Shown in pieces: positions 2,881 to 23,647 of a stretch of DNA of 64,000 bases. This DNA is from Ostreococcus lucimarinus. Its lineage: Eukaryota. A model generated the notes under the pieces. That model saw nothing but the letters and a program-made list of their open reading frames with translations, was not told the DNA's origin and ran no database searches. Made by a program: the position numbers and the translations under genes. The stretch is from the NCBI GenBank assembly GCA_000092065.1, contig CP000587.1; one strand, written 5' to 3'. Each line of letters starts with the position of its first letter. Position 1 is the first letter of the stretch.

Positions 2881-5228
2881 ATGTCGTCCGCCGCCGCCCT
2901 GAGCCCGGCCGCGCTCGCGCTCCGCGCCAAGCTCACCGCCAAGGTCCAAAACCGTCGCTCGCGCATGAGCGCCAAGGTCGTCACGCGCGCCGCCGTCGCC
3001 GCGCCGCCGGGCGTCTCCGCGGACACGGTGAACGACGCGATCAACACCGTGCGATTTTTGGCGATCGACGCGATCAACAAGTCCAACTCCGGTCACCCCG
3101 GCTTGCCGATGGGCTGCGCGCCGATGGGCTACGTGATTTTCCGCGAAGCGATGACGCACAACCCGAAGAACACGAAGTGGTTCAACCGCGATCGATTCGT
3201 GCTGTCCGCGGGACACGGGTGCATGCTGCAGTACTCTTTGATGCATTTGACCGGTTACCCGAGCGTTTCGGTGCGTTCGTCGCGACGCGCGCGCGCGGGC
3301 GACGCGATTCTCGAACGCGCGCGCCGATCGTGTGGATAAAGCCTCAAGTTGGGGTTTTGGATAAGAGCCCGCGCGGACGCGCGAAGGATGGACGCGAACG
3401 CGCGAGAGCGTCGCTCTGGCGGACGCGCGAGCGATGATGGAGATAAAACTCGATGACTGACGATGAATGCGCGATGCACGCTCGACGCGCGTAGATTGAA
3501 GACATCAAGCAGTTCCGTCAGTGGGACTCCAAGACCCCGGGTCACCCGGAGAACTTCATCACCGACGGCATCGAAGTCACCACGGGCCCGCTCGGTATGG
3601 GTATTTGCAACGCCGTCGGTCTCGCGATGGTCGAGAAGCACCTCGCCGGTCGATTCAACAAGCCGGATTGCGAAATCGTCGATCACTACACGTACTGCGT
3701 CATGGGCGACGGCTGCAACATGGAGGGCATGTCCGGCGAAGGCGCGTCCCTCGCCGGTCACTGGGGCCTCGGCAAGTTGATTGTCTTCTATGACGACAAC
3801 CACATCTCCATCGATGGTCACACCGACATCTCCTTCACGGAAGACGTCGTCGCGCGCTTCAACGCGTACGGCTGGCACACGCAACACGTCGAGAACGGTA
3901 ACACCGACGTCGACTCGATTCGCGCCGCCGTCAACGCCGCCAAGGCTGACCCGCGCCCGTCGCTCATCAAGGTGACCACCTTGATTGGCTACGGTTCCCC
4001 GAACAAGTCCAACACCCACGACGTGCACGGCGCGCCGCTCGGTAAGGATGAAACCGCCGCGACTCGCGAAAACTTGAAGTGGAAGTACGGCGAATTCGAA
4101 GTTCCGGAAGCCGTCAAGGCGTACATGGATTGCTCCGAAAAGGGCACCGCCGCCGAAGCCGAATGGAACGCCAAGTGGGCCACCTACAAGAGCAAGTACG
4201 CCGAAGATGCGGCCGAGCTCGAGTCCATCATGTCCGGCAAGTTGCCGTCTGGCTGGGAAAAGTCTCTCCCGACGTTCACGCCGGAGGACAAGGGTGTCGC
4301 CACGCGCATCCACTCCCAAACCATGCTCAACGCCCTCGGTGGCGCGATCCCGGGTTTCATGGGTGGTTCCGCCGATCTTGCGCCGTCCAACATGACGTTG
4401 ATGAAGCAATTCGGTGACTTCCAAAAGGACACCCCGGCCGAGCGCAATGTTCGCTTCGGCGTCCGCGAGCACGGTATGGGTGCCATCGCCAACGGCATGA
4501 AGCTCCACTCCCCGGGTATCATTCCGTACTGCGCGACCTTCTTCATCTTCACCGACTACATGCGTTGCGCCATGCGCATCGCCGCGCTCTCCCAAGCCGG
4601 TACCATCTTCGTCATGACGCACGATTCCATCGGCGTCGGCGAGGACGGCCCGACTCACCAGCCGATTGAGCACGTCGCGTCCTTCCGCGCCATGCCGGGT
4701 ATGGACATGGCTCGCCCGGCCGACGGCAACGAGACCGCCGCCATGTACAAGATGGCTGTCGAAAACTCGATGAACGGTGCCCCGACTACGTTGGCGCTCT
4801 CCCGCCAAGTCGTGCCGAACCTTGCGGGTACCTCCATGGAAGGCGCCGCCAAGGGTGCGTACGTCGTCCAAGGCGCCGCCGCTGGCGAAGCGTGCGACGT
4901 GATCCTCATCGGTACCGGTACCGAACTCGAACTCGCGTGCCAAGCTGGTGCCGAGCTCGAATCTAAGGGTAAGAAGGTTCGCGTTGTCTCCATGCCGTGC
5001 TGGGAAGCCTTCGAGCGCCAACCGGCCGCCTACCAAGAGTCCGTCTTGCCGGCTGCCATGCGCGCGAAGACCGTCTCCATCGAGGCGGGCACCACGTTCG
5101 GCTGGGCTAAGTACGCCGGCGCTTCCATCGGACATGACGATTTCGGCGCTTCGGCACCGGCCCCGATTCTGTACAAGCAGTTCGGAATCACTGCCGATGC
5201 CATGGCCGCGAAGGCGATGTCGTTGTAA
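2881..5228 (+). CDS. Transketolase (plastid-type, N-terminal transit peptide), two exons: 2881..3270 and 3495..5228
   Basis: Exon 1 ends ...HLTGYPSVS and the intron begins GTGCGT. Exon 2 ([20 protein letters not shown]...[14 protein letters not shown]...) continues in frame into ORF 3597..5228. Thiamine-diphosphate-binding and transketolase C-terminal motifs are present throughout. The splice sites are chosen by frame and consensus, not verified. Confidence 0.9.
3271..3494 (+). repeat. Intron of the transketolase gene, introner-like element (GTGCGTTCG donor ... GACTGACGATGAATGCGCGATG ... TAG)
   Basis: A 224-nt intron. Its 5' end (gtgcgt cg) and its 3' branch-point module are shared with the introns at 8043..8190, 18397..18518, about 18280..18319 and the minus-strand intron ending at 29708. 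Confidence 0.6.
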
Positions 5229-5479
5229 GCGTAGGGACCGGATGTCGAAGCGTTGCGCTCGGGAAAATTCCCCGCAACGAGTCCCCGCAACGGACAGCCG
5301 CTCGTGCCACTTTAGTCGCGCACTTTTGATTGAAGTACTAATATAAATTCCTTCTCCTTTCCCGTCGTCGCCGTCCGTTCTCCTTTGCCGTCGTCGCCGT
5401 CCCGAGCTCCCGAGCTCCCGTCGCGCCGACGCCATCCCGAGCGTCGCGCCTCGCCGTCGCGACCGCACTCCGCGCCTCG

Positions 5480-6448
5480 ATGGGATGCGCGAGCTCGCGC
5501 GTCGACGTCGATCCCGCGTCGCATCGCGCGCTCGACCGGAGTTCGCCGCCGTCGACAAGCGCCGCGGTCGCGACGTCGCGGTCGAGACGCTCGCTCGACA
5601 TCTTTCACGACGCCCTGACGTCGTTTCGAGAACACTTTTCGAGCGCCTCGAAGACGCACTGGGACGCCGCGCCGTGCGAGTGGCTGCGCGTGCGCGCCGC
5701 GTCGTACTTCGTGGACGCTAAAAAGGCACCACCGCGCGAGAGACCGCTGCTGACGCTGCGACACGTCGATCTGTTCGATGGCTCGAGCCTGGCGAGCGAC
5801 GGCGACGACGCGCGCGTCGATTTTTGTCGAACGCGACCGGAGAGTTGGTTCAGGCGCGAGTTCGAGCGCGACGGAGGAGCGACGACGGCGTGGACGTTCG
5901 CGATGCACTTCGTAAATCCGGATGGGGCGAATTTGGTGTGCTATTTTCAGCCCGAGGGCGACGGCGCGGAGAGCGTTCGCGACGCGCGGCGGTTGTGCGA
6001 TTGGGTCGACGCGAATTCGTCGCCGTCGTTCGCCAAGACGTTGAGACGGTTCGTGGAGACCGATGATGACGCATATCGCGCGGCGAGAGTGAAGCTGTGC
6101 GCGAAACTTCATCCGCAGTCGCCGTTGATGTTGCGCAAGTGCGTGCCGACGAAACCGGTGCTCGTGGGAAAACGCGCGTCGACGCGCTTTTTTCGCGGCG
6201 CCGGCGATACCGAGGGGTACGAGGACCGTTATTTAGAGTGTTGCATCGAGTGCGGGACGAGCGCGTCTGCGAAATATCTGTACAACATGTTCTCCGGGCT
6301 CAGCGCGCGGAGCGACGAGGATTTGGCGATATGGATCGAGGGCGCGCGCGAAGACGAGTTGCCTGAGCGCGTGCTCGGCGCCGTGCGTCTGCGAAGGATT
6401 TCGCCGAAGTGCTTGACGAAGTTGACAAAACTACCTTTAGTTAGATGA
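5480..6448 (+). CDS. DUF1336 / EDR2 C-terminal-domain protein with an N-myristoylation-type start (MGCASS)
   Basis: ATG at 5480. The C-terminal motif [14 protein letters not shown] and preceding blocks ([24 protein letters not shown]) resemble the DUF1336 family. Confidence 0.5.
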
Positions 6449-6521: not shown

Positions 6522-7616
6522 CTACTCCTCCTCGTCCGGGAACAACGCGTCGACGAACCCGACCGCGTCGAACGACTGCAAGTCTTGCATCGACTCGCCG
6601 ACGCCAACGAACTTGACGGGAATCCCCAACTCATCCACCACGCTCACCACCGCGCCTCCTCGCGAGGTGCCGTCGAGCTTGGTCAAAATGATTCCCGTCA
6701 CGCCCACGGCTTCGTTGAAAACGCGCGCCTGGTTGAGCATGTTCAACCCGGTGGTGCCGTCCAAGACGAGTAAAACCTCGTGCGGCGCGCTCGGCAAGCG
6801 CTTGGAGATGGAATTCTTCACCCCGACTAATTCATCCATGAGCTGAGAGTTGTTGTGCAATCGCCCGGACGTGTCCGCGAGCACGACGTCGACGTCGCCC
6901 CGCGCGCACGCCTCGTCCACCGCCTTGTAACACACCGCCCCCGGTTTGGTGTTCGGCGGCGAGTCGCTCATCACCGCTCCCGTGCGTTCAGCCCACGTCG
7001 CGAGCTGTTCGGCCGCCGCCGCGCGAAACGTGTCTCCCGGCACCATCATCACCTTCGCCCCGCTCTCCGCGAATCGATGACTCAATTTTCCCAGCGTCGT
7101 CGTCTTCCCCCCCCCGTTCACGCCCACCACCAACACCACGCTCGGTTCGCCCGCCGTCTCGTTCAATCCAATCTTCATCGCGTCCCCCGCCTTGGTCAAC
7201 ACCTCCACGATCGACGCCTTCAGCGCTCGCCGCACGTCCCCCCCCGTCTTACACTCGCCTCGCTCCACGCGCGCGCGCACGCCGTCCGTCACCCGCGTCG
7301 CCGCCTTGGGCCCGAAATCCGCCCCCAGCAGCGTCTCCTCCAGCTCCTCCAGCGCGTCGTCGAAATCCTCCATGCGCCACAGCGCCAACACGTCGTTCAC
7401 CGCGCTCAATCGCTCCCGCGTCTTCGACGTCCCGTTGAACACGCGCTCGACATCCATCGCCGTCTTCTTTCGCAGCACCGACGCGAGTTTGCCGAGATCG
7501 AATCCCGCGCGCGTCGCGATTCGTCTCGAGCGCGCGTCGCGACGCGCGGTGCGCGACGACGTCGACGTCGACGTCGTCGCGCGCGCGGGCGTCGCGCGCG
7601 TCGCGACGCGCGTCAT
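6522..7616 (-). CDS. ftsY: Chloroplast SRP receptor cpFtsY (SRP54-type GTPase, NG domain)
   Basis: [40 protein letters not shown] and [12 protein letters not shown] are present. I re-anchored the start to ATG 7616 ([16 protein letters not shown], transit-peptide-like). The ORF extends to 7871 with no other ATG. Confidence 0.85.
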
Positions 7617-7898
7617 CGCGTCGCGGTGTGCCGCGCGCGGACGACGATCGGGCGATGGTTGTGGATAAGGTCCGTGTAGAGTCTCAAACAGCAACCGCCC
7701 GCCCGGCGGCGTCGCGACGACGCGCGGCGCGCGCACACGGCGACGCGGGCGCGAACGAGCGCGACGCGAGCGCACGACGCGTCGTTCGAACCGTCCGCGC
7801 AAGTCCGACGACCGCGCGAGAGTCCGACGACCGCGCGACGCGACGCGTTCGTAAAGCGAATCGCACGACATCGTTCGTAAGCGCGAGCTCGACGCGCG

Positions 7899-10800
7899 AT
7901 GATGACGACGGCGACGCGTCGACCGGCGACGACGGCGCGGTGGACGGCGACGCGGGATTTGGTGAAGAAGAATTCTTTGCGTCGAACGCGCGGGCGCGCG
8001 TGCGCGGCGCGCGTGCGGGCGAGCGCGCCGGAACCGCCGACGGTGCGTCGAGACATCGTCGCGCGACGACGCGAAACCCTGTGGATGGCGAGGGTGTGAC
8101 CTAGGAGACGCGCGCGACGGAGGGCGAGGAGCGACGGCGAGGGCGCGGAGACTGACGATGCGAGCGCGATCGGACGATTGATGCGATTAGGATCGAGCGA
8201 GCCCGTTCGGGTTCGAGCGCGAGATGGACGCGGTGGAGAAACAAATCGCGGCGCTGCCGACGGCGGCGCGGTTGGGGGCGTACGGCGCGCTCGTGGCGCT
8301 CGGCGCCGGATTGGGGAACGCGGTGGGCTCCGCGATGCCGGCGAACGTCAGGGGAGGGGCGAAAGCGGCGCTGACGGCGGTCGTCGGTGGTGGCGCCGCG
8401 TATGGGGTGTCGGTGGCGGATAAGAAGCGGTTCACGGCGGCGCCGAAGAGCTTGTGGAACTCGCTGCAGGGACGGGATCCGTTGAGCGTGACGGCTGAGG
8501 AAGTCAACGCGATGGGGGCGAAGTTTGGGATCGCGAACATGGGTCAATCGTGCGCGACGGCGATGACGGAGCTTTACGACGTCTACTTGATGTCTCTCGT
8601 GCCGCAAGGGTTGGATCCGGTGCAAGGTTGGGAAGCCGCGGCTTTGGCGCAGTTTCGCCAAACGCTCGGCATAGACGACGCCTCGGCGGCGCAGGCGCAC
8701 TTGGAGGCTGGTCGTCGCTTGTTCAGAAAGCGCATCGAACTCGGATCGACGGATAAGGAGACGGACTTGGAATCGCGCAAGGAGTTCCAAAAGCTCGTCT
8801 TCATCTCTACGCAAACCTTTGGCGAAGAGCAAGCGCGATTTTTGCTCCCGTGGAAGCGCGTGTTCCGCGTCTCGGACGCCCAAGTCGACTTGGCCAACAG
8901 AGACAACGCGAGCCAGCTGTTGCGCACGAGCTTGTCCAAATCTAACGCCATCGCTAACGTTGACGCCGCGGCGATCGCGTCGGCGGCTGACTACAAGGCG
9001 TCGCTGAATTTGGACGACGACGCCGCCGGTGAAATCGCCCAAGACCTCGCCACGGCGCACGTCGCCGGCATCGTCAACGGCACCATTACGTTGAACAAGG
9101 AACGTGGCTCTGCGCGTGACGTCGGTACGATTTGCAAGAACGTTGAACAAGTTTTGGCTTACAACGTCAAGCTCGAAGGCGCGCAAGGTTCTTTCCCGGG
9201 TGTTGGTCCGGTGACGCTGTTCGGCGGCGAGTTTGACTCGAAGATGACGGAACTCAAGGACGTGTTCAGAACCTACCTCGAGGAAGGCATCAAGGGTTAC
9301 TCCTTCAGTGCCGCGCTCAACGACAACCTCGGCAAGCTCCGTCTCGTGTTTGGCATGGGCAACAAGGAGGCAGACGACATTATTCTCGCCTCCACCACCG
9401 CCTCGTACCGCCTGGCGCTTCGCGACGCCGTCAAGAGCGGCTCGTTGGACAACGCCGAGTCTCCAGCCAAGGTGCTCCAAGGTTTGTGCGAAGGCCTCCG
9501 ATTCCCTCCGGAAGTGGCTGCGGGCATTCACGAAGAGAACTATCGCACCAAGCTCGAGTCCATCATCTCATCGAATAAAAAGCTCGAAGACGCCGACGTC
9601 GAAGCCTTGGCTCGCGTTCGCAAGCTCTTGTGCGTGCCGAAGGGCGTCGTTGAGAAGCTTCACTTTGAAATCTGCGGCGAAATTTACCGCACCGCGGTTC
9701 GCTCGGCGCTTTCCGTGCCGACCGAGTCCTTCACTCCGGCGCTTCGCGACCGATGCAAGGCTGCCAAGGCAAACGTTCGTCTCGACGACGAAACCGCGCT
9801 CAAGATTCTCGGCGCCGAGGCTCGCAAGCAAATGAGTGGTTTCATCCGCACGTCCAAGTCCATTAGAAACAAGACGGACGCGCAGAAGGAGATTCGCAAG
9901 ATGATCTTCTACAACCAAGGCGTCGTGACGCCGCTCGTGCAGGACGTGACCAAGGCAAAGGCTGAGGCGGCGGCGGAGGAGCTCGCCTCGCTCTTGAAGG
10001 AGGCGCAAGAGGCGGCGGCGAAGGAGGAAGCGGAAGAGAAGGCGAAAGCCGCCGCGGAGGCTACCGCGGCGGAGCCTGAAGCCGCCGCTGAGCCCACGGT
10101 GGATGATAGCCTTCGAAGTGCGGCGGAGGGTCAAGGCTTCGCCAGTGACACCCCCAAGAAGGTTGAGGAAGTGAAGGCTGAGGCGGCGACGGAGACCGCG
10201 GAGGAGGAAGAGAAAGAGGAAGAAGTCGTCGTCAAGGAGGAAGAAGTCCCGCACCAGAAGGAAGTCACGCTCGCCGAAGACATGGATGTGGTCACTCGCC
10301 AAGCGATGTACAGAGAATACCTCATGTTCTGCATGACTGGTGATCAAGTGAACGCCCCGATGGGCGTGCGCATCAACATCGAGCGCGACCAAAGCGAATT
10401 CAAGCGCTTGTCCCAGCTCGGCGATATCCTCGGCCTTAACATGATGGAAGTCGGTCAAGTGCACAAGGATCTGGCCGACAAGGCGTTCCGGACGCAAGCT
10501 GAGCAAATGCTCGGCGACGGCCGCGGCCTCACCGCCGATCGCGCCGAGAAGCTCAAGGAAATTCAGACGCAGCTCAACTTGCCCGAGGACGAGGCGCAAA
10601 AGATCATCAAGGGCATCACCTCGCAACGCATGATGTCCAACGTTCAGCAGCAAATTGCTTCTGGTACGCTCGATGCGGCTGAGGTGAGAAAGATGATCGA
10701 AGCTGGCGTCGAAATCGAGCGCATGATTCCGGAAGACAAGCGCATGAACTTGTTCCGCAAAAACGCCGAGCGCCGTTTGGGCGACGGAAGCGGAAGCGCC

Positions 10801-11202
10801 GACATCGAAGCGCTCACGGGTACCTTGGTCGAAGATCTCAAGATTGATGGTGAGAAGGCCAAGACTGAGCTCAAGAACATCGCTGCCGAGAAGAAGCGCT
10901 CTCAAATGATTCAAGGCGTCGCTGTCTTGCGTCAAAAGAAGGCTGCCGACGTCCTCCTGTGCTGCCGCAACTTGGTCGCGTGCCAAGCCGTGGCGCCCGA
11001 GGCCAAGTTGGAGTGGAAGGTGGAATCTGAGGTGTTCGACATGTACTCTGTCTTCGTCCAAGAGTGCTCAGACGTGGAAGAGCGCAAGGTTCTTCAATCT
11101 GCTTTGAGCATTAGCGACGAAAGCGCCCGCAAGCTTGAACAAGTCGTCGCCGACGGCGCGTTCAAGTTTTCCGAAGACTCGTTAGACGAGGCCCTCTTCT
11201 AG
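7899..11202 (+). CDS. TIC110: Tic110 (chloroplast inner-envelope translocon), two exons: 7899..8042 (transit peptide) and 8191..11202
   Basis: The C-terminal 300 aa align with plant Tic110 (MYREYLMFCMTGDQV..., AVLRQKKAADVLLCCRNLVACQAVAPEAKLEW...). The mature N-terminus matches VEKxxxPVRLATSAVVLAASLATG. The predicted exon 1 is S/T/R-rich (MMTTATRRPATTARW...) and is joined across an intron with a GTGCGTCG donor and ...ACTGACGA...GATGCGATTAG 3' end; the frame is continuous. Confidence 0.85.
8043..8190 (+). repeat. Tic110 intron 1, introner-like element
   Basis: A 148-nt intron with a gtgcgtcgag donor and gagactgacgatgcgagcgcgatcggacgattgatgcgattag at its 3' end. It is the same family as 3271..3494. 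Confidence 0.55.
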
Positions 11203-12464: not shown

Positions 12465-12642
12465 CGCGTCGGCAACCGCCGCGACAGAGCGACGCGGAGT
12501 GACGACGCGCGACGGCGCGACGGCGCGCGCGTTCGGGCGCGGGCGCGAAGAAAAAATCGACTCGCTCGACGGCGCGGTCGACGGGACGAGGCGCGACGGC
12601 GGCGAGCGACGGCGCGACGAAGACGCGAAGACGGACGACGAA

Positions 12643-14418
12643 ATGACGGCGGGCGCGCGGACGACGACGACGCTGGAGCGGTACACGCCGCGGGACGCGG
12701 ACCCGGACGAGGTGTTCGAGGAGATGATTTTGGATTGGCGCGCGAATCCGCGGGTGAAGCTGCGGCGAAGGCGCGAGTGGGGGTGGGACGCGAGGGACGC
12801 GGCGACGACGGCGGCGCTGAGCGCGGCGTGGACGCTGGGACCGGCGACGCTGGCGTGGACGGCGGCGAAGGCGTACGTGAATCGGGGAAGCGCGATGGAG
12901 CGAAGGAAGAAAAAGTGGGGGGTCGTGATGGCGCTCGCGGCGAGCGAATTGGGGTGGTACGCGCACAGGCGAGGGGTCGGGAAGCGATTCGACGACGACG
13001 AAAATATGAAGGCGACGCCGACGCGACGGGATTTCGATCGGTTCTTGCAGCTTCGCTACGACGGAGTGTTGGATTTTAACGCGTACATCAGGGGATGGAT
13101 GAAGACGTGGAAGAGTTTCGCGTTCGGTGAACGCGAGAATCCGTTTCGGGCGACGCCGTCGAGCCCGCCCTTGTCCAGGGCGTCGACGCCCGGGATCGAT
13201 CGCGCCGAGTCGCCGGCGTTTCACCGAGAGACGGCGCTGGATTTTTTACGTTTCGGCTTTCACGACGCGCTGAGCGCGGAAGAGATCGGCGAGCGCAAAG
13301 AGCGGGAGCTGAGGACATTCATGGAGGAAATTGAGGCGCACTGGAACTTGAAATTCGACGACAACGCGGCGAGGGAATCGTTCGAGTTTATGTTTCACAC
13401 AAAGGAAAAGCTCGGGGCGTTGCATCAACCGCTGTTGTTCACCGCGTGGGTGAACGGTGTGGCGGGCGTGACCGGGCTGGCGTTACACGCGTTGGGATTT
13501 AAATTGTATCACGGCGCCAACGGGTGTTCGTACTGGGCGAACTGCGAAATCGTCGAGAATAATTGGAAGCGACGACGCGCGAGGACGGCGACGCGAGAGA
13601 CGAGGCACGGCCGAGGCGTCGAGACGAGACCGGTGTTGTGCGGAGACGCGGGCGACGCGAGCGACGGCGATACGAAGCCAATCATTTTCGTCCACGGCCT
13701 GGGCGTCGGACTCGCGCCGTATGTTCCGCACATCGCGCAACTCTTGCGCAGCAGACCGAATCGCAAAATCGCCATGCTGACGCTTCCTCACATTAGCATG
13801 CGAGCGGTGCCGAAGGTGCCTGAACTCGACGACATGGTGGACACGGTGGTGGAAATCACGAAGAAGCACGCATTTCGCGCGCCAGCGCTGTACGGACACA
13901 GTTTCGGCACCTTTGTCGTGGCGAGGACGTGTCAAAGGTTTTGCGTGAGTTCAATCGTGCTCCTCGATCCGGTTTGCGTGTGCTTGTGCTTACCGCAAAC
14001 TGTAGGTATTTTATACCAGCTCAATAAGAGCTGGGTCGACTTCAGGAATAGACTCATGGAAGGTCCGCGAACGCTCGCGACCGCGTCGTTTTGGCGCGAT
14101 GGAAATGCATTGTTGTACTTTTTGTTGCGCGACTACTTTCTTCTTCGAGAAATCGGCGTCATGACGGCGCTTCGAAGAAAGTTTTGGTGGGCTCGTTATA
14201 ACTTGTGGGCGGACGATTTGCCGGTGGACTCACTCATCGTGCTCGAATCGAATGATCTATTGCTCGACACGGACGCCATCTGCAGGCACGTGTTGAGGCA
14301 ATCAAAGGCGCGAATTATTTGGCAAGAGAAATTCGCGCACGGCGAATTTTGCATGCCGTGGGGATACGGCTTGCGAAGCGACGTTGTCGACTTCTTAGAC
14401 GCGTTAAAGAACGCGTAA
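12643..14418 (+). CDS. Alpha/beta-hydrolase fold protein (GHSFG nucleophile elbow)
   Basis: IIFVHGLGVGLAPY and YGHSFGTFVVAR are present. The ORF start at 12499 is GTG; the first ATG is at 12643. Confidence 0.5.
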   Translation: MTAGARTTTTLERYTPRDADPDEVFEEMILDWRANPRVKLRRRREWGWDARDAATTAALSAAWTLGPATLAWTAAKAYVNRGSAMERRKKKWGVVMALAASELGWYAHRRGVGKRFDDDENMKATPTRRDFDRFLQLRYDGVLDFNAYIRGWMKTWKSFAFGERENPFRATPSSPPLSRASTPGIDRAESPAFHRETALDFLRFGFHDALSAEEIGERKERELRTFMEEIEAHWNLKFDDNAARESFEFMFHTKEKLGALHQPLLFTAWVNGVAGVTGLALHALGFKLYHGANGCSYWANCEIVENNWKRRRARTATRETRHGRGVETRPVLCGDAGDASDGDTKPIIFVHGLGVGLAPYVPHIAQLLRSRPNRKIAMLTLPHISMRAVPKVPELDDMVDTVVEITKKHAFRAPALYGHSFGTFVVARTCQRFCVSSIVLLDPVCVCLCLPQTVGILYQLNKSWVDFRNRLMEGPRTLATASFWRDGNALLYFLLRDYFLLREIGVMTALRRKFWWARYNLWADDLPVDSLIVLESNDLLLDTDAICRHVLRQSKARIIWQEKFAHGEFCMPWGYGLRSDVVDFLDALKNA

Positions 14419-14520: not shown

Positions 14521-17500
14521 CTAGCGCCACTCGACGAAGTGTTGGCGCAGTTGCTTTGGTCGACAAGAGCGACCTTCTTCGAGGTTGAACTTGTAGCAAA
14601 CTCCTTGACGCAGTTCCATCGGGAACAAATCCGGATGGAGAATTCGAGCTAAAGTCTCCACACCATCAACGAGTTGTGGACCGGCTTGACAAATCATTTC
14701 GTGGGAGAGAACGAAGACGCGGCGATCGCGCACGGCAGGAATCACCCACCAACCCGGCTGACTCGCCAAATGTTCTAGCTGTTCGAGCGTCCTCTCCATG
14801 GTTTCTTCGGATGATTTACCTATGTAGCAAGGCACGAGAAGTAACACATCTGGGCCGTACGACAGCACTTGCTCCCATCGCATGCGCTCAGCTGAAACGC
14901 CCGGTTCGTGAAGTTCGTCGATACCGCCGGCGATTGATTTCATCTCGGGCAGCCAGTGTCCGCCGGCGACGAGAGGTTTGATGCCTTCCAAAGACATGAC
15001 CTTCGGCCTTTCGTCAGCCGTGGCGACGACACGAGCGATAGTACGCAAACGTGATCGAAGCTGCGTCAGCAAAGTCACCGCCTTTTCCTTTACACCGCAC
15101 AAAATCCCGATTTGAAGAATCACGTCCAAGACGTCGCTCAGCGTCTTTGGAGCGACGGGGAAGATTGACGGCCGCGACGCGTCGACTTCCAAGGAATCTT
15201 CGTCCGAATCAAACTCTGCGTTCGTCAAGAAAACTTCGGCTTCGTGTAGAAACTTGGCGGTGCCAAAACGCACATCGGTGCACTGTGAGCACACGTCTGG
15301 GGTGAAGATGAGTCGAGCCTCTGCGTGGCGCACAAAGTTGACGTCGAAGAAACACCATTTGTCGAGCGCGCTCACGTGCGACGACGAGCTATGCCTGGCC
15401 TCCAAACGAGTCAGCGAGTTGTAGCTCGACCCGTGATGAGTTCCACCAAAAAATTCGAAATCGCCATTCAAAGAGTTCGAAGACTTCTTTCGATTGTCAG
15501 CGAGACCAGCGCTCGATTGCGGCAAAGCGAGAGAGTGCAAGTGTCTGGCGACGATTTTTGGGTAATCCGTGATGTCCTCTGGAAGCACGCACGCCTCCGT
15601 GATGCCGACGATTCGATCGCCGACGCCAAGTGCATAGAGGATAGATGTCGCAGTCGTGGAAAGGGAAATTATCGACCCCACCGATTGCGGCAACGGAAGC
15701 TGCAGCTGCGAAGGCGCGTGGAGATGATCCGCCATGACTTGCGGCGCGGCGCCAAAGTATAAGTGCAGAGCCACATCGAGCTCGGGTTGCGTCGTTGACT
15801 TACGAGGCATTCCCGAGAGTTTCGATATTTGCGCACCCAGTGACTGCATCGACGCCGATGAGCGCGAGCGGAACATTCCTAATCCCTCCGCCGAGTCCAA
15901 GTCAACCGAGTACTCGCGGAAGTCGCGAGACATCGCACGAGCGCGCCGCGGCGGCAAAACCTGTTTGACTTTTTCTGGTGAATCCGACTGCGCTGACCGC
16001 GCGAGCATCTCTTCCTCGCTCATACTCCTGCTTCGTTCGAGAGCCTTGTCGAACTTTCTCGAACTGATTGGCGTCAGAGGTCCGAAGCTCTTGCTCATCG
16101 TCCTTCGTGAAACCATCGCCGCGCGCGCCGCGGCTTCCGCCGCGCCCGGCGGCACGCTTCTGCACGACTCAACGAACGAGGAAGCCAAAGATGGATTAGC
16201 GCCAAAGTGAAGGTGTAACTGCGATACCAGCACATTGTTCCACGCGAAACCGTCGAGATTGATCGAGTTTTTGCCCTTGCCGAATTTTCGTTCCTGCTTC
16301 ACCTCGTACGTCGCGCCCCAGCCGATGGCGACTTTATCCTCCGTCACGCGCATCTTGCTCGGTCTATCGCCGTGTATTTCGCTGTATCGAAACGTCTGAC
16401 CTCGAACGACTTCACCCTCGTTGAACAAAGGATTTCCGGGCGCAATAGTGATCTCGGCGTATCCCGTCTTCACCGAACTCGTGAGTCGCGTCGCGAAGGG
16501 CGCGACGCCGCACATGGATCGAGGCGAGCTCCCATCCGGCGCTGAGAGCGACTGCGAAAGGAACATCAATCCACCGCATTCGGCGTACACCACGCCTCCT
16601 GCTGTGGCAAACGCCGTCACCGCCGATCGTAAAGGCCGATTCTTGAACAAGGCCTGCGCGTGAAACTCGGGATAACCTCCGCCAAAGATGACGCCTTGGA
16701 CGTCGCTCGGCAATCCTTCGCCGGCTATCGGACTAAAGTAGACTAATTCCGCCCCCGCGTCTTCCAACTTGGCTAAATTTTCGGGATAGTAGAAGCAAAA
16801 CGCTTCGTCTCGAGCGACAGCGATGCGCACTTTCGGCTTTGACGGCCCCGCCTCGAGTTCCTCTCGCATGGCGCGTTCGAGCGCCAAATCGCGCGCGACG
16901 CGCGGCGAAATTTCGTACGCCGGCATCGCTTCGAACAACGCGTCGAGATCGACGTTTTGCTCGAGCAACATCGCCATGTGCTGAATTTTCTGCTCCATGG
17001 CGTCGTCACTCGTCGTCGCCGCGCTCGTTGGATCAAACGTGGGCCCGTTGGTGTCCTTGGGAATCCCCCCGAAGACGTCCACGTGCGCCATCGCCGCCAA
17101 GAGACTTTCTCGCAAGTACTCCGTGTGCGCCTCACCACCGGTTTTGTTGAAAACCACCCCCACCAAATTCAACTCCGCGTCGAATTCTCTGTACCCCTTG
17201 ATCACCGCCGCCACCGAGCGCGCCATGGCGTTACAATCCACCACCAGCAGCACCCCCGCCTCGAGCCACTTTGCCATCTGCGCCGTCGATCCGTCCTCGC
17301 TCATCCCATCTCTCCCATCGTACAGCCCCATCACCCCGTCCACGATCGCCACGTCGCACGTCTCCGCGTGTTTCGCCACCACCCTCGCCACCGCTCCCGC
17401 GCTCATCATGTACCCATCCAGATTTTCGCTCTCCCGCGCGTCCCCGCTCTGGCTCCGCAGCGCCGATCGGTGCGCCATGGGATCCACGAAATCGCACCCA

Positions 17501-17613
17501 ACCTTGAACGCTCGCACTCGCAGTCCCCGTCTCGCGTACGCCAGCATCAACGCCGTCGCGATCGTCGTCTTCCCCACCCCCGAGTGCGTTCCCGCGACGA
17601 CCACCACCTTCAT
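14521..17613 (-). CDS. Fusion protein: CbiA/CobB-type cobyrinic-acid a,c-diamide synthase (P-loop plus glutamine amidotransferase) with a C-terminal class-III periplasmic-binding-protein (BtuF-like) domain
   Basis: The N-terminus is MKVVVVAGTHSGVGKTTIATALMLAYARRGLRVRAFKVGCDFVDP (CbiA signature). The GATase Cys motif is VYAECGGLMFL. The C-terminus has IISLSTTATSILYALGVGDRIVGITEACVLPEDITDYPKIV ... PDVLLLVPC ... ARILHPDL, typical of BtuF/FhuD-type binding proteins. Start re-anchored to ATG 17613; the upstream ORF extension to 18378 is low-complexity. Confidence 0.7.
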   Translation of the reverse strand: MKVVVVAGTHSGVGKTTIATALMLAYARRGLRVRAFKVGCDFVDPMAHRSALRSQSGDARESENLDGYMMSAGAVARVVAKHAETCDVAIVDGVMGLYDGRDGMSEDGSTAQMAKWLEAGVLLVVDCNAMARSVAAVIKGYREFDAELNLVGVVFNKTGGEAHTEYLRESLLAAMAHVDVFGGIPKDTNGPTFDPTSAATTSDDAMEQKIQHMAMLLEQNVDLDALFEAMPAYEISPRVARDLALERAMREELEAGPSKPKVRIAVARDEAFCFYYPENLAKLEDAGAELVYFSPIAGEGLPSDVQGVIFGGGYPEFHAQALFKNRPLRSAVTAFATAGGVVYAECGGLMFLSQSLSAPDGSSPRSMCGVAPFATRLTSSVKTGYAEITIAPGNPLFNEGEVVRGQTFRYSEIHGDRPSKMRVTEDKVAIGWGATYEVKQERKFGKGKNSINLDGFAWNNVLVSQLHLHFGANPSLASSFVESCRSVPPGAAEAAARAAMVSRRTMSKSFGPLTPISSRKFDKALERSRSMSEEEMLARSAQSDSPEKVKQVLPPRRARAMSRDFREYSVDLDSAEGLGMFRSRSSASMQSLGAQISKLSGMPRKSTTQPELDVALHLYFGAAPQVMADHLHAPSQLQLPLPQSVGSIISLSTTATSILYALGVGDRIVGITEACVLPEDITDYPKIVARHLHSLALPQSSAGLADNRKKSSNSLNGDFEFFGGTHHGSSYNSLTRLEARHSSSSHVSALDKWCFFDVNFVRHAEARLIFTPDVCSQCTDVRFGTAKFLHEAEVFLTNAEFDSDEDSLEVDASRPSIFPVAPKTLSDVLDVILQIGILCGVKEKAVTLLTQLRSRLRTIARVVATADERPKVMSLEGIKPLVAGGHWLPEMKSIAGGIDELHEPGVSAERMRWEQVLSYGPDVLLLVPCYIGKSSEETMERTLEQLEHLASQPGWWVIPAVRDRRVFVLSHEMICQAGPQLVDGVETLARILHPDLFPMELRQGVCYKFNLEEGRSCRPKQLRQHFVEWR

Positions 17614-17812
17614 CGCGCTCGATCGTTCGCGCGCGCTCGAGCTCTCGACGTCTCGTCCCTCTCGCGCGTCGTCGCGCGCGTCGTCGCGCTCGATCCGTCC
17701 CGCGCGCTTCCGCTCGACGCTGACGCTCGACGCGCGTTCGCTCGCGCGCGCTCGCGCGTTCGCGCGTCCCCGCGTCTCGCGCGCGTCGCGCCGTGCGGCG
17801 CCGGCGCCAACG

Positions 17813-17844
17813 GGTCGGTCGGTCGGTCGGTCGGTCGGTCGGTC
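17813..17844. repeat. (GGTC)8 microsatellite in the 5' region of the CbiA-like gene
   Basis: ggtcggtcggtcggtcggtcggtcggtcggtc is read directly from the sequence. Confidence 0.9.
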
Positions 17845-18342: not shown

Positions 18343-18836
18343 ATGACGCCCAAGGAAGCGAAGCGTCAGCAGCGACACCGCAAGATTCGATCCAAGGTGC
18401 GTCGATGGATCGAGAGTCGCGAAGACGCGAGCGACGACGGACGCCCCCTCGCGAAGACGCGAGGCGAGACGAGCGCGAGAGACTGACGAGCGATGCGATC
18501 GTCCGTTTCCATCGATAGATTTCCGGATCGTCCGAACGCCCGCGCATTTCCGTGTACAGATCGAACCAGCACGTCTACGTCCAAGTCATCGATGACGAAA
18601 ACCAAAAAACCATCGCCGCGCTCGGGACGATGAGCGCGTCCGTCAAGGCCGTCATCGGGAGCGAGGAGTGGAAGGGCAAGACCGTGGAGTCTGCGGAGCA
18701 AGTCGGGAAGATGCTCGGTGCCGTGTGCGTCGAAAAGGGCATCACGCAGGCTGTGTTCGACCGCGGTGGATTCCTCTACCACGGCCGCGTCAAGGCCATC
18801 GCCGACGGCGCTCGCGCCGCCGGCGTCGCGATGTGA
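18343..18836 (+). CDS. Organellar bacterial-type ribosomal protein uL18, exons 18343..18396 and 18519..18836 (possible further 5' exon)
   Basis: Exon 2 reads MTPKEAKRQQRHRKIRSK. Exon 3 reads ISGSSERPRISVYRSNQHVYVQVIDD...VFDRGGFLYHGRVKAIADGARAAGV, a strong L18 match. The joining intron starts GTGCGTCGATGG and ends ...GACTGACGAGCGATGCGATCG...ATCGATAG. Another introner-like 3' end lies at about 18283..18319, so an additional upstream exon (targeting peptide) is likely. Confidence 0.75.
18397..18518 (+). repeat. uL18 intron, introner-like element
   Basis: A 122-nt intron with a gtgcgtcgatgg donor and gagagactgacgagcgatgcgatcgtccgtttccatcgatag at its 3' end. Confidence 0.6.
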
Positions 18837-19148: not shown

Positions 19149-20186
19149 ATGCACGCCCAAGCGCGCACCGCGCGCGCCGTCGACGTCGCGCGAACGACGT
19201 CCAAAAAGCAAAAGCATCACAGCCAACGCGCGGTGTCCGCGCGCGCGGCGGCGACGAGCGAGACGACGACGAGCGTCGGAGTGAGGATAGGAAGCGCGAG
19301 CGTCAAAGGGACGGTTCGTAAGCAAAACGAGGATCGATTCTCGACGTACGCGCCGAAGACGAAACCCGAAGACGGGACGCCGAGCTTGATCGCGAGCGTC
19401 TTCGACGGTCACGGAGGCAAAGCGGTGAGCGAATGGCTGCGAGAAAACTTGAACGAGTTCATTCTGGGGGAGTGGAAGCAGGCTGATTTTCCACTCGACG
19501 CGCTGCGAACGGCGTGCTTGAAGGCGGACCAGGTTTTGGTGGCGCCGCAGGAGGGATTTTTCGCGTCGTTTGGCGAGCGAGGCGTCGGCGGGTCCAAGTG
19601 CGGGAGCACGGCGGTCATCGTGGCGTTGTATGAGGAGGGCGGTTCCAAGCGCTTGGCCACGGCGAACGTTGGCGATGCGCGTATTTTGTTGGTCCGCGAT
19701 GGGAAGGCGTTGCAGTTGAGCGTTGATCACGTGCCGGATGACGAAGCCGAGCGCAAGCGCATCGATCGCGGCAACCCGAACTTGCGCCAGTCGCTCGTGA
19801 AGTTTACCGAAGGTTCTTGGCGAGTCGGTGGTGTCTTGGCGCTTTCGCGCGCGTTCGGTGATTCCTTCTTGAAGGAAAGCGGTCGCTTCGAAGGCATCGG
19901 CGAGAAGAACGCGGATTATGGCAGTGGATTTGGCTTGAACGCCGAGCCGGATTGCTACATTGAGCAAATCACGGCGGCCGACTCGTGGGTCATGCTTTCC
20001 TCCGATGGTTTGTTCGAGAACCCCGAACGCGGTGGTGGTGGCGGTTGGACGAACCAAGAGATCGCCGATTTCTTGACCTCGGCGCCCGCGGACGCGGAGC
20101 CGGAGACGCTCGCGAAGGAGCTCATCGCGCAAGCCGTCGCCAAGGGTAGCACGGATGACGTGACGGTTCAACTTTTGCGCCTCTGA
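19149..20186 (+). CDS. Protein phosphatase 2C (PP2C)
   Basis: ATG at 19149. PP2C motifs are present (SVFDGHGG, GSTAVIVAL, GDARILLVRDG, LALSRAFGD, LSSDGLF, TDDVTV). Confidence 0.8.
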   Translation: MHAQARTARAVDVARTTSKKQKHHSQRAVSARAAATSETTTSVGVRIGSASVKGTVRKQNEDRFSTYAPKTKPEDGTPSLIASVFDGHGGKAVSEWLRENLNEFILGEWKQADFPLDALRTACLKADQVLVAPQEGFFASFGERGVGGSKCGSTAVIVALYEEGGSKRLATANVGDARILLVRDGKALQLSVDHVPDDEAERKRIDRGNPNLRQSLVKFTEGSWRVGGVLALSRAFGDSFLKESGRFEGIGEKNADYGSGFGLNAEPDCYIEQITAADSWVMLSSDGLFENPERGGGGGWTNQEIADFLTSAPADAEPETLAKELIAQAVAKGSTDDVTVQLLRL

Positions 20187-22705: not shown

Positions 22706-23647
22706 ATGTCGCTCGACTGTCGCGCCGGCGCGCCGAGCGCGACGATCGCGTCGCGCGCGGCCGCGCGCGCGAGCCTGTCGCGCGCGTCGCGCGCACCGCG
22801 AGGCCGATTCTCGTCGCCGCCGACGGATAAGCATCGTCCTTTTTCGACGCCGCACCGCGCGTCGCGTCGCGCGCGCGCGATCGCGAACGACGAGGACGTC
22901 GCCGGGAACCCTTTTGAGCAGAGCTCGTCCGCGGCGGGCGAACGCAGGGCGCTTTTCAACGACATCGCGCCCGTGTACGATCGATTGAACGATGGGTTGT
23001 CGCTCGGGCTGCATCGCGCGTGGAAGCGCGCGGCGGTGAAATGGATCGATTGCTCGCCGGGCATGGAGGCCCTGGACGTGTGCTGCGGGTCGGGGGACGT
23101 GGCTATTAAAATGTCGACGTTCGTGGGCGCGACGGGACGGGTGACGGGGTTGGATTTCGCGGCGAATCAATTAAAGTACGCGGCGGAGAAGGAGCGAGAT
23201 TTGCGCGCGGCGAGCGCGGACGCGAGCGCTCGCATGGGGAAGATTACGTGGATCGAGGGTGACGCGCTGAATTTGCCTTTTGACGATGAGTCGTTTGATT
23301 GCGCGACGATCGCTTACGGATTGAGGAACGTGAGCGATATTCCACGGGCGATGGGGGAGTTGAGACGAGTGTTGCGTCGAGGCGCCAAGCTCGCGGTTTT
23401 GGATTTCAACAACCCGGAGGATCCCACGACGGCGGCGGTGCAAGGATTTATGCTGGATAACGTCGTCGTCCCGATCGCAGATCTCAATGGCGTCGCCGCG
23501 GAGTATAGGTACTTGCGTCCGAGCATCGAACGCTTCCCGCGAGGGCGCGAGCAGGTGAATTTGGCGCGAGACGCGGGTTTCAGAGAGGCTAAGTTTTACG
23601 AACTCGCTCCGGGCGGTTTGATGGGGTGCTTGGTGTGCACGAAGTAG
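22706..23647 (+). CDS. UbiE/MenG-family methyltransferase (demethylphylloquinone/menaquinone methyltransferase-like), plastid presequence
   Basis: ATG at 22706. Motifs: LFNDIAPVYDRLNDGLSLGLHRAWKR, LDVCCGSGD, GLRNV. Confidence 0.7.
   Translation: MSLDCRAGAPSATIASRAAARASLSRASRAPRGRFSSPPTDKHRPFSTPHRASRRARAIANDEDVAGNPFEQSSSAAGERRALFNDIAPVYDRLNDGLSLGLHRAWKRAAVKWIDCSPGMEALDVCCGSGDVAIKMSTFVGATGRVTGLDFAANQLKYAAEKERDLRAASADASARMGKITWIEGDALNLPFDDESFDCATIAYGLRNVSDIPRAMGELRRVLRRGAKLAVLDFNNPEDPTTAAVQGFMLDNVVVPIADLNGVAAEYRYLRPSIERFPRGREQVNLARDAGFREAKFYELAPGGLMGCLVCTK

Follow-up and report, generated by a model that had tools for sequence, protein, structure and literature searches.

Why should a green alga carry, in one nuclear gene, a CobB-type amidoligase joined to a class-III periplasmic-binding-protein domain? 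As far as is understood, eukaryotes do no more with B12 than import and traffic it, apart from a few algae that re-tail it, and we know of no eukaryotic enzyme that acts on the side chains of the corrin ring. Nor are eukaryotes known to make corrins (PMC4057078). The gene lies in a window of 64,000 nucleotides from Ostreococcus lucimarinus (contig CP000587.1) as a single uninterrupted minus-strand ORF, with its ATG at 17613 and its stop at 14521-14523, that encodes 1030 aa; a longer mechanical ORF reaches 18378, with no in-frame ATG upstream of 17613. The encoded protein is 100% identical to metagenome protein P0001, and the O. lucimarinus entry XP_001419027.1, a partial NCBI model of 468 aa, falls in the 90% cluster of P0001.

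14521..17613, (-): CobB/Peripla_BP_2 fusion, complete CDS (1030 codons plus stop), from the ORF and its translation
15700..16092, (-): Ser/Arg-rich disordered linker, aa 508-638, pLDDT 27-48 in the full-length model

From its N terminus, the protein is built of an ATP-binding domain of CobB/CbiA type, a GATase_3 domain that has the catalytic Cys, a linker of ~130 aa that is disordered, and a class-III Peripla_BP_2 domain. The domain calls of the original prediction (CbiA/CobB, glutaminase and periplasmic binding protein) are borne out by HMM search, with Pfam matches for CbiA, GATase_3 and Peripla_BP_2 that all exceed gathering scores and with support from NCBIfam; every motif it quoted occurs in the translation, and its view of a single gene agrees with the continuous reading frame.

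Locus, distribution and selection

Neighbours in the window include Tic110, an SRP54-type GTPase, a transketolase, a PP2C and a UbiE-type methyltransferase. The flanks had been described as eukaryotic and within 0.3 kb; they are eukaryotic, but the distance holds on the downstream side only, where a convergent ORF ends 103 nt away, and the nearest upstream gene, for an L18p-type ribosomal protein, lies at about 0.9 kb, followed by PP2C at 1.5 kb. Similarly, a composition said to match the neighbours (GC3 0.76-0.83) was found in the CobB half (0.74) and not in the binding-domain half, which is lower (0.61). The flanking abhydrolase, L18p and PP2C genes are common to contigs of two other Ostreococcus lineages, and this synteny, together with a whole-gene dN/dS of 0.12 (against a 98%-identical Ostreococcus orthologue) and plastid-related nuclear flanking genes, upholds the earlier judgement that contamination is unlikely. 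The fusion gene is nuclear, and its eukaryotic context is confirmed. Among seven neighbouring genes examined we found no cob or cbi genes, and hence no co-occurrence with the corrin pathway there, and no transporter gene was seen among the neighbours examined.

Rather than the oddity of one alga that it had seemed, the fusion is a conserved family that extends from green algae to oomycetes, dinoflagellates and bolidophytes. It is present in chlorophytes, streptophyte algae, liverworts, mosses, one lycophyte and one haptophyte, with plant and algal orthologues placed on scaffolds of chromosome scale (20-100 Mb), and it occurs with extra Kelch and DUF5522 domains in oomycetes, dinoflagellates and one bolidophyte. 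Seed plants are absent among the matches. The moss and lycophyte carriers are Physcomitrium, Ceratodon and Diphasiastrum, and mosses and lycophytes are reported to be without B12-dependent metabolism (Dorrell et al., 10.1101/2023.06.07.544158). The retention of the fusion in plants thought to lack B12 enzymes and the loss of the catalytic Cys in some lineages are weak points of the function proposed below. A literature search found no functional study of a CobB/Peripla_BP_2 fusion.

Linker length ranges from 0 to 382 aa among homologues, the stramenopile and dinoflagellate versions being without a linker. Purifying selection acts on the linker despite its disorder (dN/dS about 0.12-0.16) and, between close Ostreococcus relatives, on the CobB half (dN/dS 0.07-0.18). 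Constraint in these comparisons is stronger on the binding domain, with 0 non-synonymous against 20 synonymous changes in the C-lobe.

The CobB-type half

17047..17604, (-): ATP-binding synthetase domain, CbiA/DTBS-like, aa 4-189 (PF01656, 2.2e-19; PF13500, 7.6e-14)
17563-17592, (-): P-loop GTHSGVGKTT, aa 8-17, seen in the translation
17479-17499, (-): D-F-V-D-P motif, within GCDFVDP, aa 39-45, seen in the translation
16195..16827, (-): GATase_3 glutaminase domain, aa 263-473 (PF07685, 4.5e-27)
16576-16578, (-): nucleophile Cys346, in YAECGG, aa 343-348, by motif
16207-16215, (-): H-L-H motif (His467 and His469, in HLHF), by motif

This half passes the NCBIfam cutoffs of the CobB equivalog NF002204 (391.4 bits, cutoff 254) and of TIGR00379 (346.6 bits, cutoff 261.4), and fails that of the CfbB model NF033195 (335.1 bits, cutoff 560). 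It shares with CobB/CbiA the synthetase plus GATase_3 layout, the P-loop, DxxD, the Cys nucleophile and HxH, all of which are intact in the Ostreococcus gene; it differs in standing in eukaryotic nuclei without the remaining pathway and in its C-terminal binding domain. The nearest solved analogue of the synthetase domain is that of CTP synthase, and the glutaminase domain is structurally like GatD and the CTP synthase glutaminase domain. The P-loop was detected by regex in 90 of the 120 top homologues, many of the remaining ones being fragments, and the glutaminase Cys is present in 96 of the 120; G or S stands in its place in O. mediterraneus, Bathycoccus, Riccia and Diphasiastrum.

In a neighbour-joining (NJ) tree, the eukaryotic CobB domains form one clade, and the sampled bacterial sequences that lie closest to it are CobB proteins with a fused CbiC, CbiD or CobT. 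These bacterial fusions are genuine B12-pathway enzymes. The fusion partners of bacterial CobB are CbiC, CbiD, CbiX, CobC or CobT.

The binding domain and its prokaryotic relatives

14524..15693, (-): class-III PBP-like domain without signal peptide, aa 641-1030
15589..15591, (-): Cys675, the family's invariant 'C-x-x-P' cysteine (invariant in alignments A1, A2 and A3)
15364..15534, (-): Ostreococcus-specific low-complexity N-lobe insertion, aa 694-750, pLDDT below 50
15280..15291, (-): C-S-Q-C (Cys775, Cys778) of the T-Q-D-x-C-x-x-C motif, in an N-lobe loop facing the cleft
14941..14964, (-): G-G-H-W-L-P-E-M (His886, Trp887), in a C-lobe loop

The Pfam Peripla_BP_2 match spans aa 824-969 plus an N-terminal stretch (6.5e-15), and the domain has the corresponding fold, with two alpha/beta lobes and a single long rigid connecting helix; ILYALGVGDRIVGITEACVLPED is found from ~aa 657, and VPC929 and ARILHPDL are likewise present. 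The domain is not placed as an extracytoplasmic protein would be: it begins at aa ~641, the N terminus of the protein is the P-loop strand, and an N-terminal extension is absent in most homologues, the Ostreococcus protein included. At the N-lobe insertion site most homologues have 25 residues and Ostreococcus about 60, and a second insertion covers aa 797-810.

The best structural matches in a fold search are the tetrapyrrole binders PhuT, IsdE, ShuT, HutB and BtuF, with haem-binding proteins scoring as high as BtuF, siderophore binders below both, and sequence identity peaking at 24% (Vibrio BtuF). The fusion domain differs from BtuF, PhuT, ShuT and IsdE in being internal to a predicted cytosolic protein without a signal peptide, in its extra conserved cysteines (C..P, CxxC, PC) and in its conserved C-terminal tail, which includes Cys1017; no ABC transporter partner like that of BtuF is apparent. 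Cys675 aligns at 'EYS' of Vibrio BtuF (5ysc), one residue after the corrin-stacking Tyr; Tyr50 of BtuF reportedly has this stacking role. The aligned counterpart of GGHWLPEM in Vibrio BtuF is 'QGHWPSEV'. These positions, Cys675 beside that of Tyr50 and a GHW as in Vibrio BtuF, hint that cobalamin may be bound in the cleft.

The closest relatives of the domain form an unnamed prokaryotic Peripla_BP_2 family of about 305 aa without signal peptide ('MRICSLLPSATE...'), with the motifs C-[DE]-[YF]-P, TQ[DE]xCxxC, GHW[VL]PEM, PC and SRPGPR[LI]V[DE]G. The Ostreococcus domain belongs to it by its C675, C775/C778, GGHWLPEM and VPC929, while its SRPGPR has degenerated to CQAGPQ, with both Arg gone. The CxxC motif is kept in most fusions and in the stand-alone family ('Q[DE]LCxVCA' is invariant in A3) and is lost in Marchantia, Diphasiastrum and P0070; of the GHW motif, all three residues never vary among the stand-alone proteins, and G and W never vary among the fusions. 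Independent evidence comes from the stand-alone proteins, which score 245-340 bits against the fusion-domain profile; the 409 bits of P0002, the 98% orthologue, are not independent, as the 12 rows of the profile are fusion domains that include the Ostreococcus one. Sharing motifs and profile scores with the fusions, the family differs in being stand-alone and prokaryotic, and its members form a clade apart from the eukaryotic fusions in the NJ tree. We found neither an NCBIfam model nor a published study for it.

The suggested resemblance to algal B12-acquisition proteins appears, for CBA1, to be one of fold only; the domain is a bona fide Peripla_BP_2 of a specific, signal-peptide-less family. 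CBA1 too is algal, has a predicted BtuF-like fold and is implicated in B12 handling, but is described as having a signal peptide, ER localisation, little sequence similarity to BtuF and no enzyme domain (PMC10828217).

Genomic context offers clues to what the prokaryotic family does. In Nitrospirota, Ignavibacteriales, Acidobacteriota and proteobacterial MAGs (labelled Deltaproteobacteria or 'proteobacterium'), the signal-peptide-less protein is encoded in operons that have a cobalamin riboswitch at their head (78-121 bits) and also encode a TonB receptor, a second BtuF with a signal peptide, FecCD and an ABC ATPase. At locus L040 its gene overlaps the cobQ stop, downstream of a PduO adenosyltransferase gene, and at five loci it adjoins a DUF71 protein with ENGEFH, the DUF71-B12 signature; the DUF71-B12 subgroup is predicted to function in B12 salvage (PMC3541065). 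DUF71-B12 and CobQ, too, are carboxylate-amidating enzymes linked to B12 salvage, and like the CobB domain of the fusion they are teamed with a putative corrinoid binder, in prokaryotes as adjacent genes that are not fused; they are unlike CobB in fold or specificity, DUF71 being a PP-loop ATPase and CobQ amidating the b, d, e and g side chains. Most contexts are uninformative: a riboswitch occurs at only 6 of 67 scanned prokaryotic loci, any B12-related neighbour was seen at about 11 of 80, and no haem or sirohaem genes occur among 145 neighbours. B12 uptake and salvage is the only coherent context of the family, and because some of its members sit in riboswitch-controlled B12 operons, the signal-peptide-less proteins are candidate intracellular corrinoid carriers.

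None of the 80 prokaryotic loci pairs CobB with the signal-peptide-less protein and none has the fusion architecture, in keeping with the original view that the arrangement is not bacterial. One apparent exception, P0120, was rejected as a bacterial fusion, being an in-frame juxtaposition of cobB with a signal-peptide-bearing btuF. In a bacterial riboswitch-cobU-cobT-cobS-cobC-cobB-btuF-cobA operon, cobB directly adjoins btuF.

Proposed function and alternatives

Among the roles listed in the original prediction, the new genomic context favours corrinoid salvage or remodelling, still as an inference. The reading we prefer, with confidence a little short of even, is corrinoid salvage or repair by a cytosolic binding module that hands its ligand to a CobB-type amidoligase. 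The BtuF-like domain would take an imported corrinoid (cobalamin, or one that is deamidated or not fully amidated) into its inter-lobe cleft, where conserved Cys, His and Trp might serve as ligands of the cobalt-corrin or stack against it. The CobB-type module would then amidate acetate-side-chain carboxylates after activating them with ATP (those at a and c in the case of canonical CobB), with ammonia drawn from glutamine by the Cys346 glutaminase, or taken up free where the Cys is lost. The net role would be corrinoid salvage or repair in organisms dependent on scarce external B12. Canonical CobB substrates are cobyrinic or hydrogenobyrinic acid; no other cob gene is known or was seen in the window, so these acids would be dead ends in this alga. 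To our knowledge, activity of the CobB family on complete cobalamins has never been shown. Also counting against this reading are the uninformative context of most prokaryotic loci, the lack of any pairing with CobB among the 80 loci of the signal-peptide-less protein, the loss of CxxC in some plants and of both SRPGPR Arg in Ostreococcus, and the fold-search scores of haem binders, which equal those of BtuF.

One alternative, which we consider unlikely, is that the enzyme amidates a non-corrin tetrapyrrole of the host (sirohydrochlorin or sirohaem to 'siroamide', or a metallo-isobacteriochlorin as with CfbB), with the binding domain as a carrier. Mosses and a lycophyte reported to be without B12 enzymes are among the carriers of the gene, and these plants make sirohaem. 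CfbB (the Ni-sirohydrochlorin a,c-diamide synthase) and DsrN (a sirohaem amidase with 'siroamide' as its proposed product) are homologous amidoligases of tetrapyrrole acetate side chains, known from archaeal or sulfur-metabolism contexts and without a binding domain; they are examples of recruitment of this enzyme family to tetrapyrroles other than corrins, and an origin from archaeal CbiA is reported for both (PMC7617358). The 335 bits obtained with the CfbB model point the same way, but are far under its cutoff of 560, whereas the CobB cutoffs are passed; unlike DsrN and CfbB, the algal domain fits the bacterial CobB model best and groups with bacterial CobB fusions, and the only coherent context of the binding-domain family is B12, with none of its 145 neighbours a haem or sirohaem gene. 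Seed plants, which use sirohaem but lack the gene among the matches, also speak against this alternative.

It is likewise improbable that the protein is a corrinoid carrier, chaperone or sensor that delivers or sequesters B12, its CobB-like half serving as a nucleotide-dependent switch rather than an amidating enzyme. The CbiA domain is a member of the MinD/ParA-like P-loop superfamily, the binding domain is the more constrained half, with no non-synonymous change in its C-lobe, and several lineages have lost the glutaminase nucleophile while keeping the binding-domain motifs. Against this, Cys346, HxH, DxxD and the P-loop are intact in the Ostreococcus gene and in 96 of 120 homologues, and purifying selection extends over the entire CobB half. 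CbiA mutants that lack the Cys reportedly keep ammonia-dependent activity, and loss of the Cys therefore need not mean loss of catalysis.

We also doubt that the substrate lies outside the tetrapyrroles, with a CobB-like amidoligase and a binder of siderophores or metal chelates acting on another polycarboxylate such as a metallophore. Class-III PBPs bind siderophores or metal chelates as often as tetrapyrroles, B12 genes are absent from most loci of the signal-peptide-less family, and the conserved Cys-rich cleft could hold a metal or cluster; yet the equivalog-level CobB score favours a corrin substrate, siderophore binders rank under the haem and B12 binders, and the riboswitch, DUF71-B12, CobQ and PduO contexts are corrinoid-specific. 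An origin as bacterial contamination, or as a functionless, decaying relic of horizontal transfer, would suit the prokaryotic type of both domains, the 468-aa NCBI fragment and a 3' half with GC3 under the neighbours' values, but is largely refuted and highly improbable given an intact ORF under a dN/dS of about 0.1, flanks conserved in two other Ostreococcus lineages, orthologues on 20-100 Mb chromosome-scale scaffolds, and Tic110 and other plastid-related nuclear genes in the window.

Returning to salvage by a binding module and a CobB-type amidoligase, the proposal lends itself to direct testing, since Ostreococcus tauri can be manipulated genetically and each half of the protein can be produced and assayed. 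The analysis also brings to light a large and so far unstudied family of BtuF paralogues in prokaryotes that have no signal peptide. With a conserved cytosolic CobB-type amidoligase tethered to a domain that binds corrinoids or tetrapyrroles, eukaryotic B12 metabolism would gain a step of salvage or repair. Such a step would matter for the question of what forms of corrinoid phytoplankton and oomycetes can use from seawater and soil, and for the debate over what is left of B12 metabolism in early land plants. More speculatively, many eukaryotes, among them B12-auxotrophic picoalgae, oomycetes, dinoflagellates and even bryophytes, may re-amidate or finish imperfect environmental corrinoids, fed by a hitherto unrecognised class of intracellular BtuF-like carriers that would also work in prokaryotic salvage operons. 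If so, eukaryotes would chemically repair or upgrade B12, beyond importing and decorating it, and part of the marine corrinoid pool regarded as 'non-bioavailable' would be usable.

A CobB-type amidoligase joined to a BtuF-like domain

The gene is a single intact open reading frame on the minus strand, and its product carries three Pfam domains, each exceeding its gathering score:

14521-17613, minus strand: fusion CDS, 1030 codons, ATG at 17613 and stop at 14521-14523 (ORF and translation)
aa 4-189 of the minus-strand fusion protein: CbiA (Pfam)
aa 263-473 of the minus-strand fusion protein: GATase_3 (Pfam)
aa 824-969 of the minus-strand fusion protein: Peripla_BP_2, best stretch, with a further N-terminal stretch (Pfam)

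This confirms the original prediction, made from sequence alone, of a CbiA/CobB enzyme fused to a BtuF-like binding domain, and the HMM search bore out all three domains. Mechanical extension of the reading frame up to 18378 contains no in-frame ATG upstream of 17613, so the protein opens with its first strand and the P-loop (MKVVVVAGTHSGVGKTT), with no space ahead of them for a transit or signal peptide. The start codon is closely preceded, on its 5' side, by imperfect tandem repeats rich in GC (17653-17791) and by (GGTC)x8, a perfect microsatellite (17813-17844) that encodes TDRPTDRP in the spurious upstream extension.

Residues 1-483 match the NCBIfam CobB equivalog NF002204 with 391 bits (cutoff 254) and also fall within TIGR00379 (347 bits, cutoff 261). 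Both halves are confident in a full-length structure model (pTM 0.53), with residues 508-638 disordered. A sequence search of the PDB returned no solved CobB or CbiA, and fold searches with the N-terminal half brought up only two analogues, CTP synthase and GatD, both amidoligases that depend on ATP and carry a glutaminase.

At 100% identity, the protein matches a metagenome cluster (90% cluster) that also holds XP_001419027.1 from Ostreococcus lucimarinus CCE9901. In NCBI this entry is a partial protein of 468 aa, compared with 1030 aa for the ORF in the window, and the reference annotation appears truncated. Other genes in the window are:

3597-5228: transketolase
6522-7871: SRP54/FtsY-type GTPase
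8224-11202: Tic110
12499-14418: alpha/beta hydrolase
~18534-18782, plus strand: L18p-type ribosomal protein, by homology to the syntenic gene in L083 (a homologous locus; 88% identity)
19149-20186: PP2C
22706-23647: UbiE/COQ5-type methyltransferase

The match to the L18p-type gene, which sits between the fusion gene and PP2C, covers only residues 47-129, which may point to an intron or else to a presequence that has diverged. Across the window, Rfam yielded no family at or above its gathering score.

Two contigs bearing orthologues 98% and 75% identical to the fusion have the same neighbours, with a convergent hydrolase downstream and the L18p-type gene and PP2C upstream. Comparison with the 98% orthologue gives a Nei-Gojobori dN/dS of 0.12, from 48.5 synonymous changes against 19.5 non-synonymous ones; in the C-lobe of the binding domain all 20 changes are synonymous. 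For the 75% orthologue the ratio is 0.085, with dS saturated. Shared synteny and low dN/dS thus mark it as a functional nuclear gene and not a contaminant, in line with the earlier view that contamination was unlikely. GC3 stands at 0.74 for the CobB half (16144-17613) and 0.76-0.83 for the neighbours, at 0.61 for the binding-domain half (14524-15693) and at 0.59 for its C-lobe; the lowest-GC bin of the window is 14-16 kb (0.537).

Distribution across eukaryotes

The gene is not peculiar to this alga, as the same fusion occurs across chlorophytes, streptophytes, a haptophyte, oomycetes, dinoflagellates and a bolidophyte; the domain assignments and the non-bacterial character of the architecture stand. 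Among Mamiellales, CbiA/GATase_3/Peripla_BP_2 is present in O. mediterraneus and Bathycoccus, and other chlorophyte carriers are Chloropicon, Cymbomonas, Tetraselmis and trebouxiophytes including Myrmecia, Elliptochloris and Micractinium. In Auxenochlorella and the non-photosynthetic Prototheca, the precomputed Pfam annotation covers the CobB half alone, as it does for the match in the streptophyte alga Mesostigma. Streptophyte algae with the fusion are Chlorokybus, whose orthologue is compact (850 aa), and the source of a sequence provisionally assigned to Spirogloea, and land-plant carriers comprise the liverworts Marchantia and Riccia, the mosses Physcomitrium and Ceratodon, and the lycophyte Diphasiastrum, with several copies on chromosome-scale scaffolds of 20-100 Mb. 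In Chara braunii, the binding-domain and CobB parts are two neighbouring gene models (P0229 and P0110; CBR_g32415 and CBR_g32417), probably a split model of a single fusion gene.

The haptophyte carrier is Pavlova. A variant in saprolegnialean oomycetes, in the dinoflagellates Prorocentrum and Polarella and in the bolidophyte Triparma has no linker between CobB and the binding domain and bears two C-terminal additions, a Kelch propeller and DUF5522 (proteins P0051, P0066, P0084, P0089, P0104 and others). The homologue matches include none from seed plants, animals or fungi, and no diatom or Phytophthora names. We rejected the longer profile matches P0229-P0250 as new architectures, as they are pieces or variant forms of the eukaryotic fusion.

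In neighbour-joining trees computed with no support values, whose groupings are only indicative, the eukaryotic binding domains group in a single clade that excludes the prokaryotic stand-alone proteins, and all named eukaryotic CobB domains likewise form one clade. Among the bacterial sequences sampled, the latter are closest to fusions of CobB with CbiC, CbiD or CobT. As midpoint rooting was uninformative, the CobB tree was re-rooted on an actinobacterial sequence.

The sole bacterial look-alike is P0120, a predicted protein encoded at 3302-5584 of locus L085 (760 aa, cobB and a signal-peptide btuF called as one protein). We rejected it as a bacterial fusion: its second half starts at an internal Met with a hydrophobic signal sequence, has none of the Cys motifs and reaches only 80 bits, and on these features we treat it as cobB adjoining an ordinary btuF. 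The two genes share a reading frame in an operon of order riboswitch-cobU-cobT-cobS-cobC-cobB-btuF-cobA, and the single ORF is due either to the lack of a stop codon or to a merge of the two in gene calling. This locus places cobB beside a B12 binder within a salvage-type operon. Similarly, P0382, a predicted metagenome protein of 1067 aa with CbiA/GATase_3 and TonB-receptor Plug and barrel domains, is probably cobB merged with a neighbouring btuB-like gene.

Stand-alone relatives of the binding domain and their genomic context

Searching a profile of the binding domain against 1.84 billion cluster representatives gave 1795 matches below 1e-30. Those outside the fusion are mostly proteins of 297-330 aa that match from residue 2, have no signal peptide and typically start with 'MRICSLLPSATE...'; NCBIfam has no model for this stand-alone family. 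They have in common with the fusion domain the motifs C-[DE]-[YF]-P, TQ[DE]LCxVC, GHW[VL]PEM, MPCGF and SRPGPR[LI]V[DE]G, which fall on ligand-cleft loops when aligned to BtuF. The 'GHW' is also found in Vibrio BtuF, and Cys675 aligns adjacent to the position of the corrin-stacking Tyr of E. coli BtuF. The BtuF contact residues are those reportedly described by Borths and colleagues in 2002.

We examined 80 prokaryotic loci of this family, from Nitrospirota, Binatia, Acidobacteriota, Chloroflexota, Thermoproteota and others. A cobalamin riboswitch (RF00174, 78-121 bits) was found in 6 of the 67 scanned, spanning several phyla, with two copies in L040. In four of these loci (L038, L040, L044 and L074) the riboswitch leads an operon, all on one strand, that extends from a TonB-dependent receptor to the signal-peptide-less binding protein; in L076 and L079 it precedes a divergent TonB-receptor gene adjoining the binding-protein gene. 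Five of the six also encode a second Peripla_BP_2 protein with a signal peptide, directly beside FecCD or ABC ATPase genes in L038, L040 and L044 and near them in L076; neither gene type was found in L079. Given this separate BtuF, the signal-peptide-less protein is an additional paralogue, presumably cytoplasmic. Its gene starts 28 nt (L038) or 14 nt (L048) after the receptor gene, or overlaps the preceding gene by 4 nt (L040), which leaves no room for an overlooked signal peptide.

Genes for a PduO-type adenosyltransferase and CobQ (NF001989, 617 bits) precede the binding-protein gene in L040, and L038 carries both too. Five loci, drawn from four groups, have as neighbour a DUF71 protein with ENGEFH, the signature of the DUF71-B12 subgroup, for which De Crécy-Lagard et al. 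predicted a role in B12 salvage from gene clustering (PMC3541065). In total, about 11 of the 80 loci have a B12-linked neighbour of any kind, and no other recurrent theme emerged when the Pfam domains of 145 near neighbours were tallied. We discounted the neighbours conserved in Nitrospira (squalene/phytoene synthase-like, HAD, amine oxidase, RNR), which we attribute to lineage synteny. None of the 80 loci pairs CobB with the signal-peptide-less protein.

In riboswitch-controlled operons, the gene of a conserved protein of ~500 aa with no Pfam or NCBIfam match (L044 3884-5389, L074 2124-3602, also L070 30-1223) separates that of the TonB receptor from that of the signal-peptide-less binding protein; the protein is a possible further component of B12 salvage. 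Downstream of the gene of P0237, a bacterial stand-alone relative whose C-terminal tail resembles the eukaryotic one, comes a Flavin_Reduct gene (PF01613; L081 9188-9673), of the family of the corrinoid reductase CobR; this may be coincidence.

Possible roles of the fusion protein

Each half separately indicates corrinoids, the first as an equivalog-grade CobB and the second as a member of a BtuF-like family whose sole coherent prokaryotic context is B12 uptake and salvage, where it repeatedly adjoins corrinoid-amidating or -adenosylating enzymes. Because both point the same way, we propose that the protein binds and amidates corrinoids: the C-terminal domain would bind a corrinoid in the cytosol and present it to the CobB module, which would amidate free acetate carboxylates at the expense of ATP and glutamine-derived ammonia. 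As the host has no rest of the pathway, the substrates would be complete or nearly complete corrinoids short of an amide, and the process salvage or repair, not biosynthesis. We hold this reading tentatively, as plausible but somewhat short of an even chance.

Several observations about the fusion count against this reading. Mosses and a lycophyte, groups reported to lack B12 enzymes (Dorrell et al., 10.1101/2023.06.07.544158), retain it, and among named carriers B12 dependence and fusion presence point both ways. The glutaminase Cys is substituted in Bathycoccus, O. mediterraneus, Riccia and Diphasiastrum, the CxxC motif is absent from the fusions of some plants, both Arg of SRPGPR are missing in Ostreococcus, and haem binders equal BtuF in fold-search score on the binding domain. 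Amidation of another tetrapyrrole, as by DsrN or CfbB, seems unlikely, the model of the F430 enzyme CfbB scoring 335 bits, below its cutoff of 560. Loss of the glutaminase Cys in those lineages would fit a carrier, chaperone or sensor without catalysis, a role we consider improbable for a protein that here keeps P-loop Lys15, Asp41 and Asp44 of GCDFVDP, Cys346 of YAECGG, and His467 and His469. A substrate other than a tetrapyrrole is equally unlikely beside the B12 contexts of the stand-alone family. A relic or contaminant is largely refuted by synteny and selection, and very improbable.

Full-text literature yielded no functional characterisation of the fusion, only passing mentions of an algal 'CobB-like' transcript or sequence (PMC4057078; bioRxiv 10.1101/2020.07.01.177865). 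It is best described as an uncharacterised CobB-type amidoligase with a cytosolic BtuF-like module, conserved across eukaryotes.
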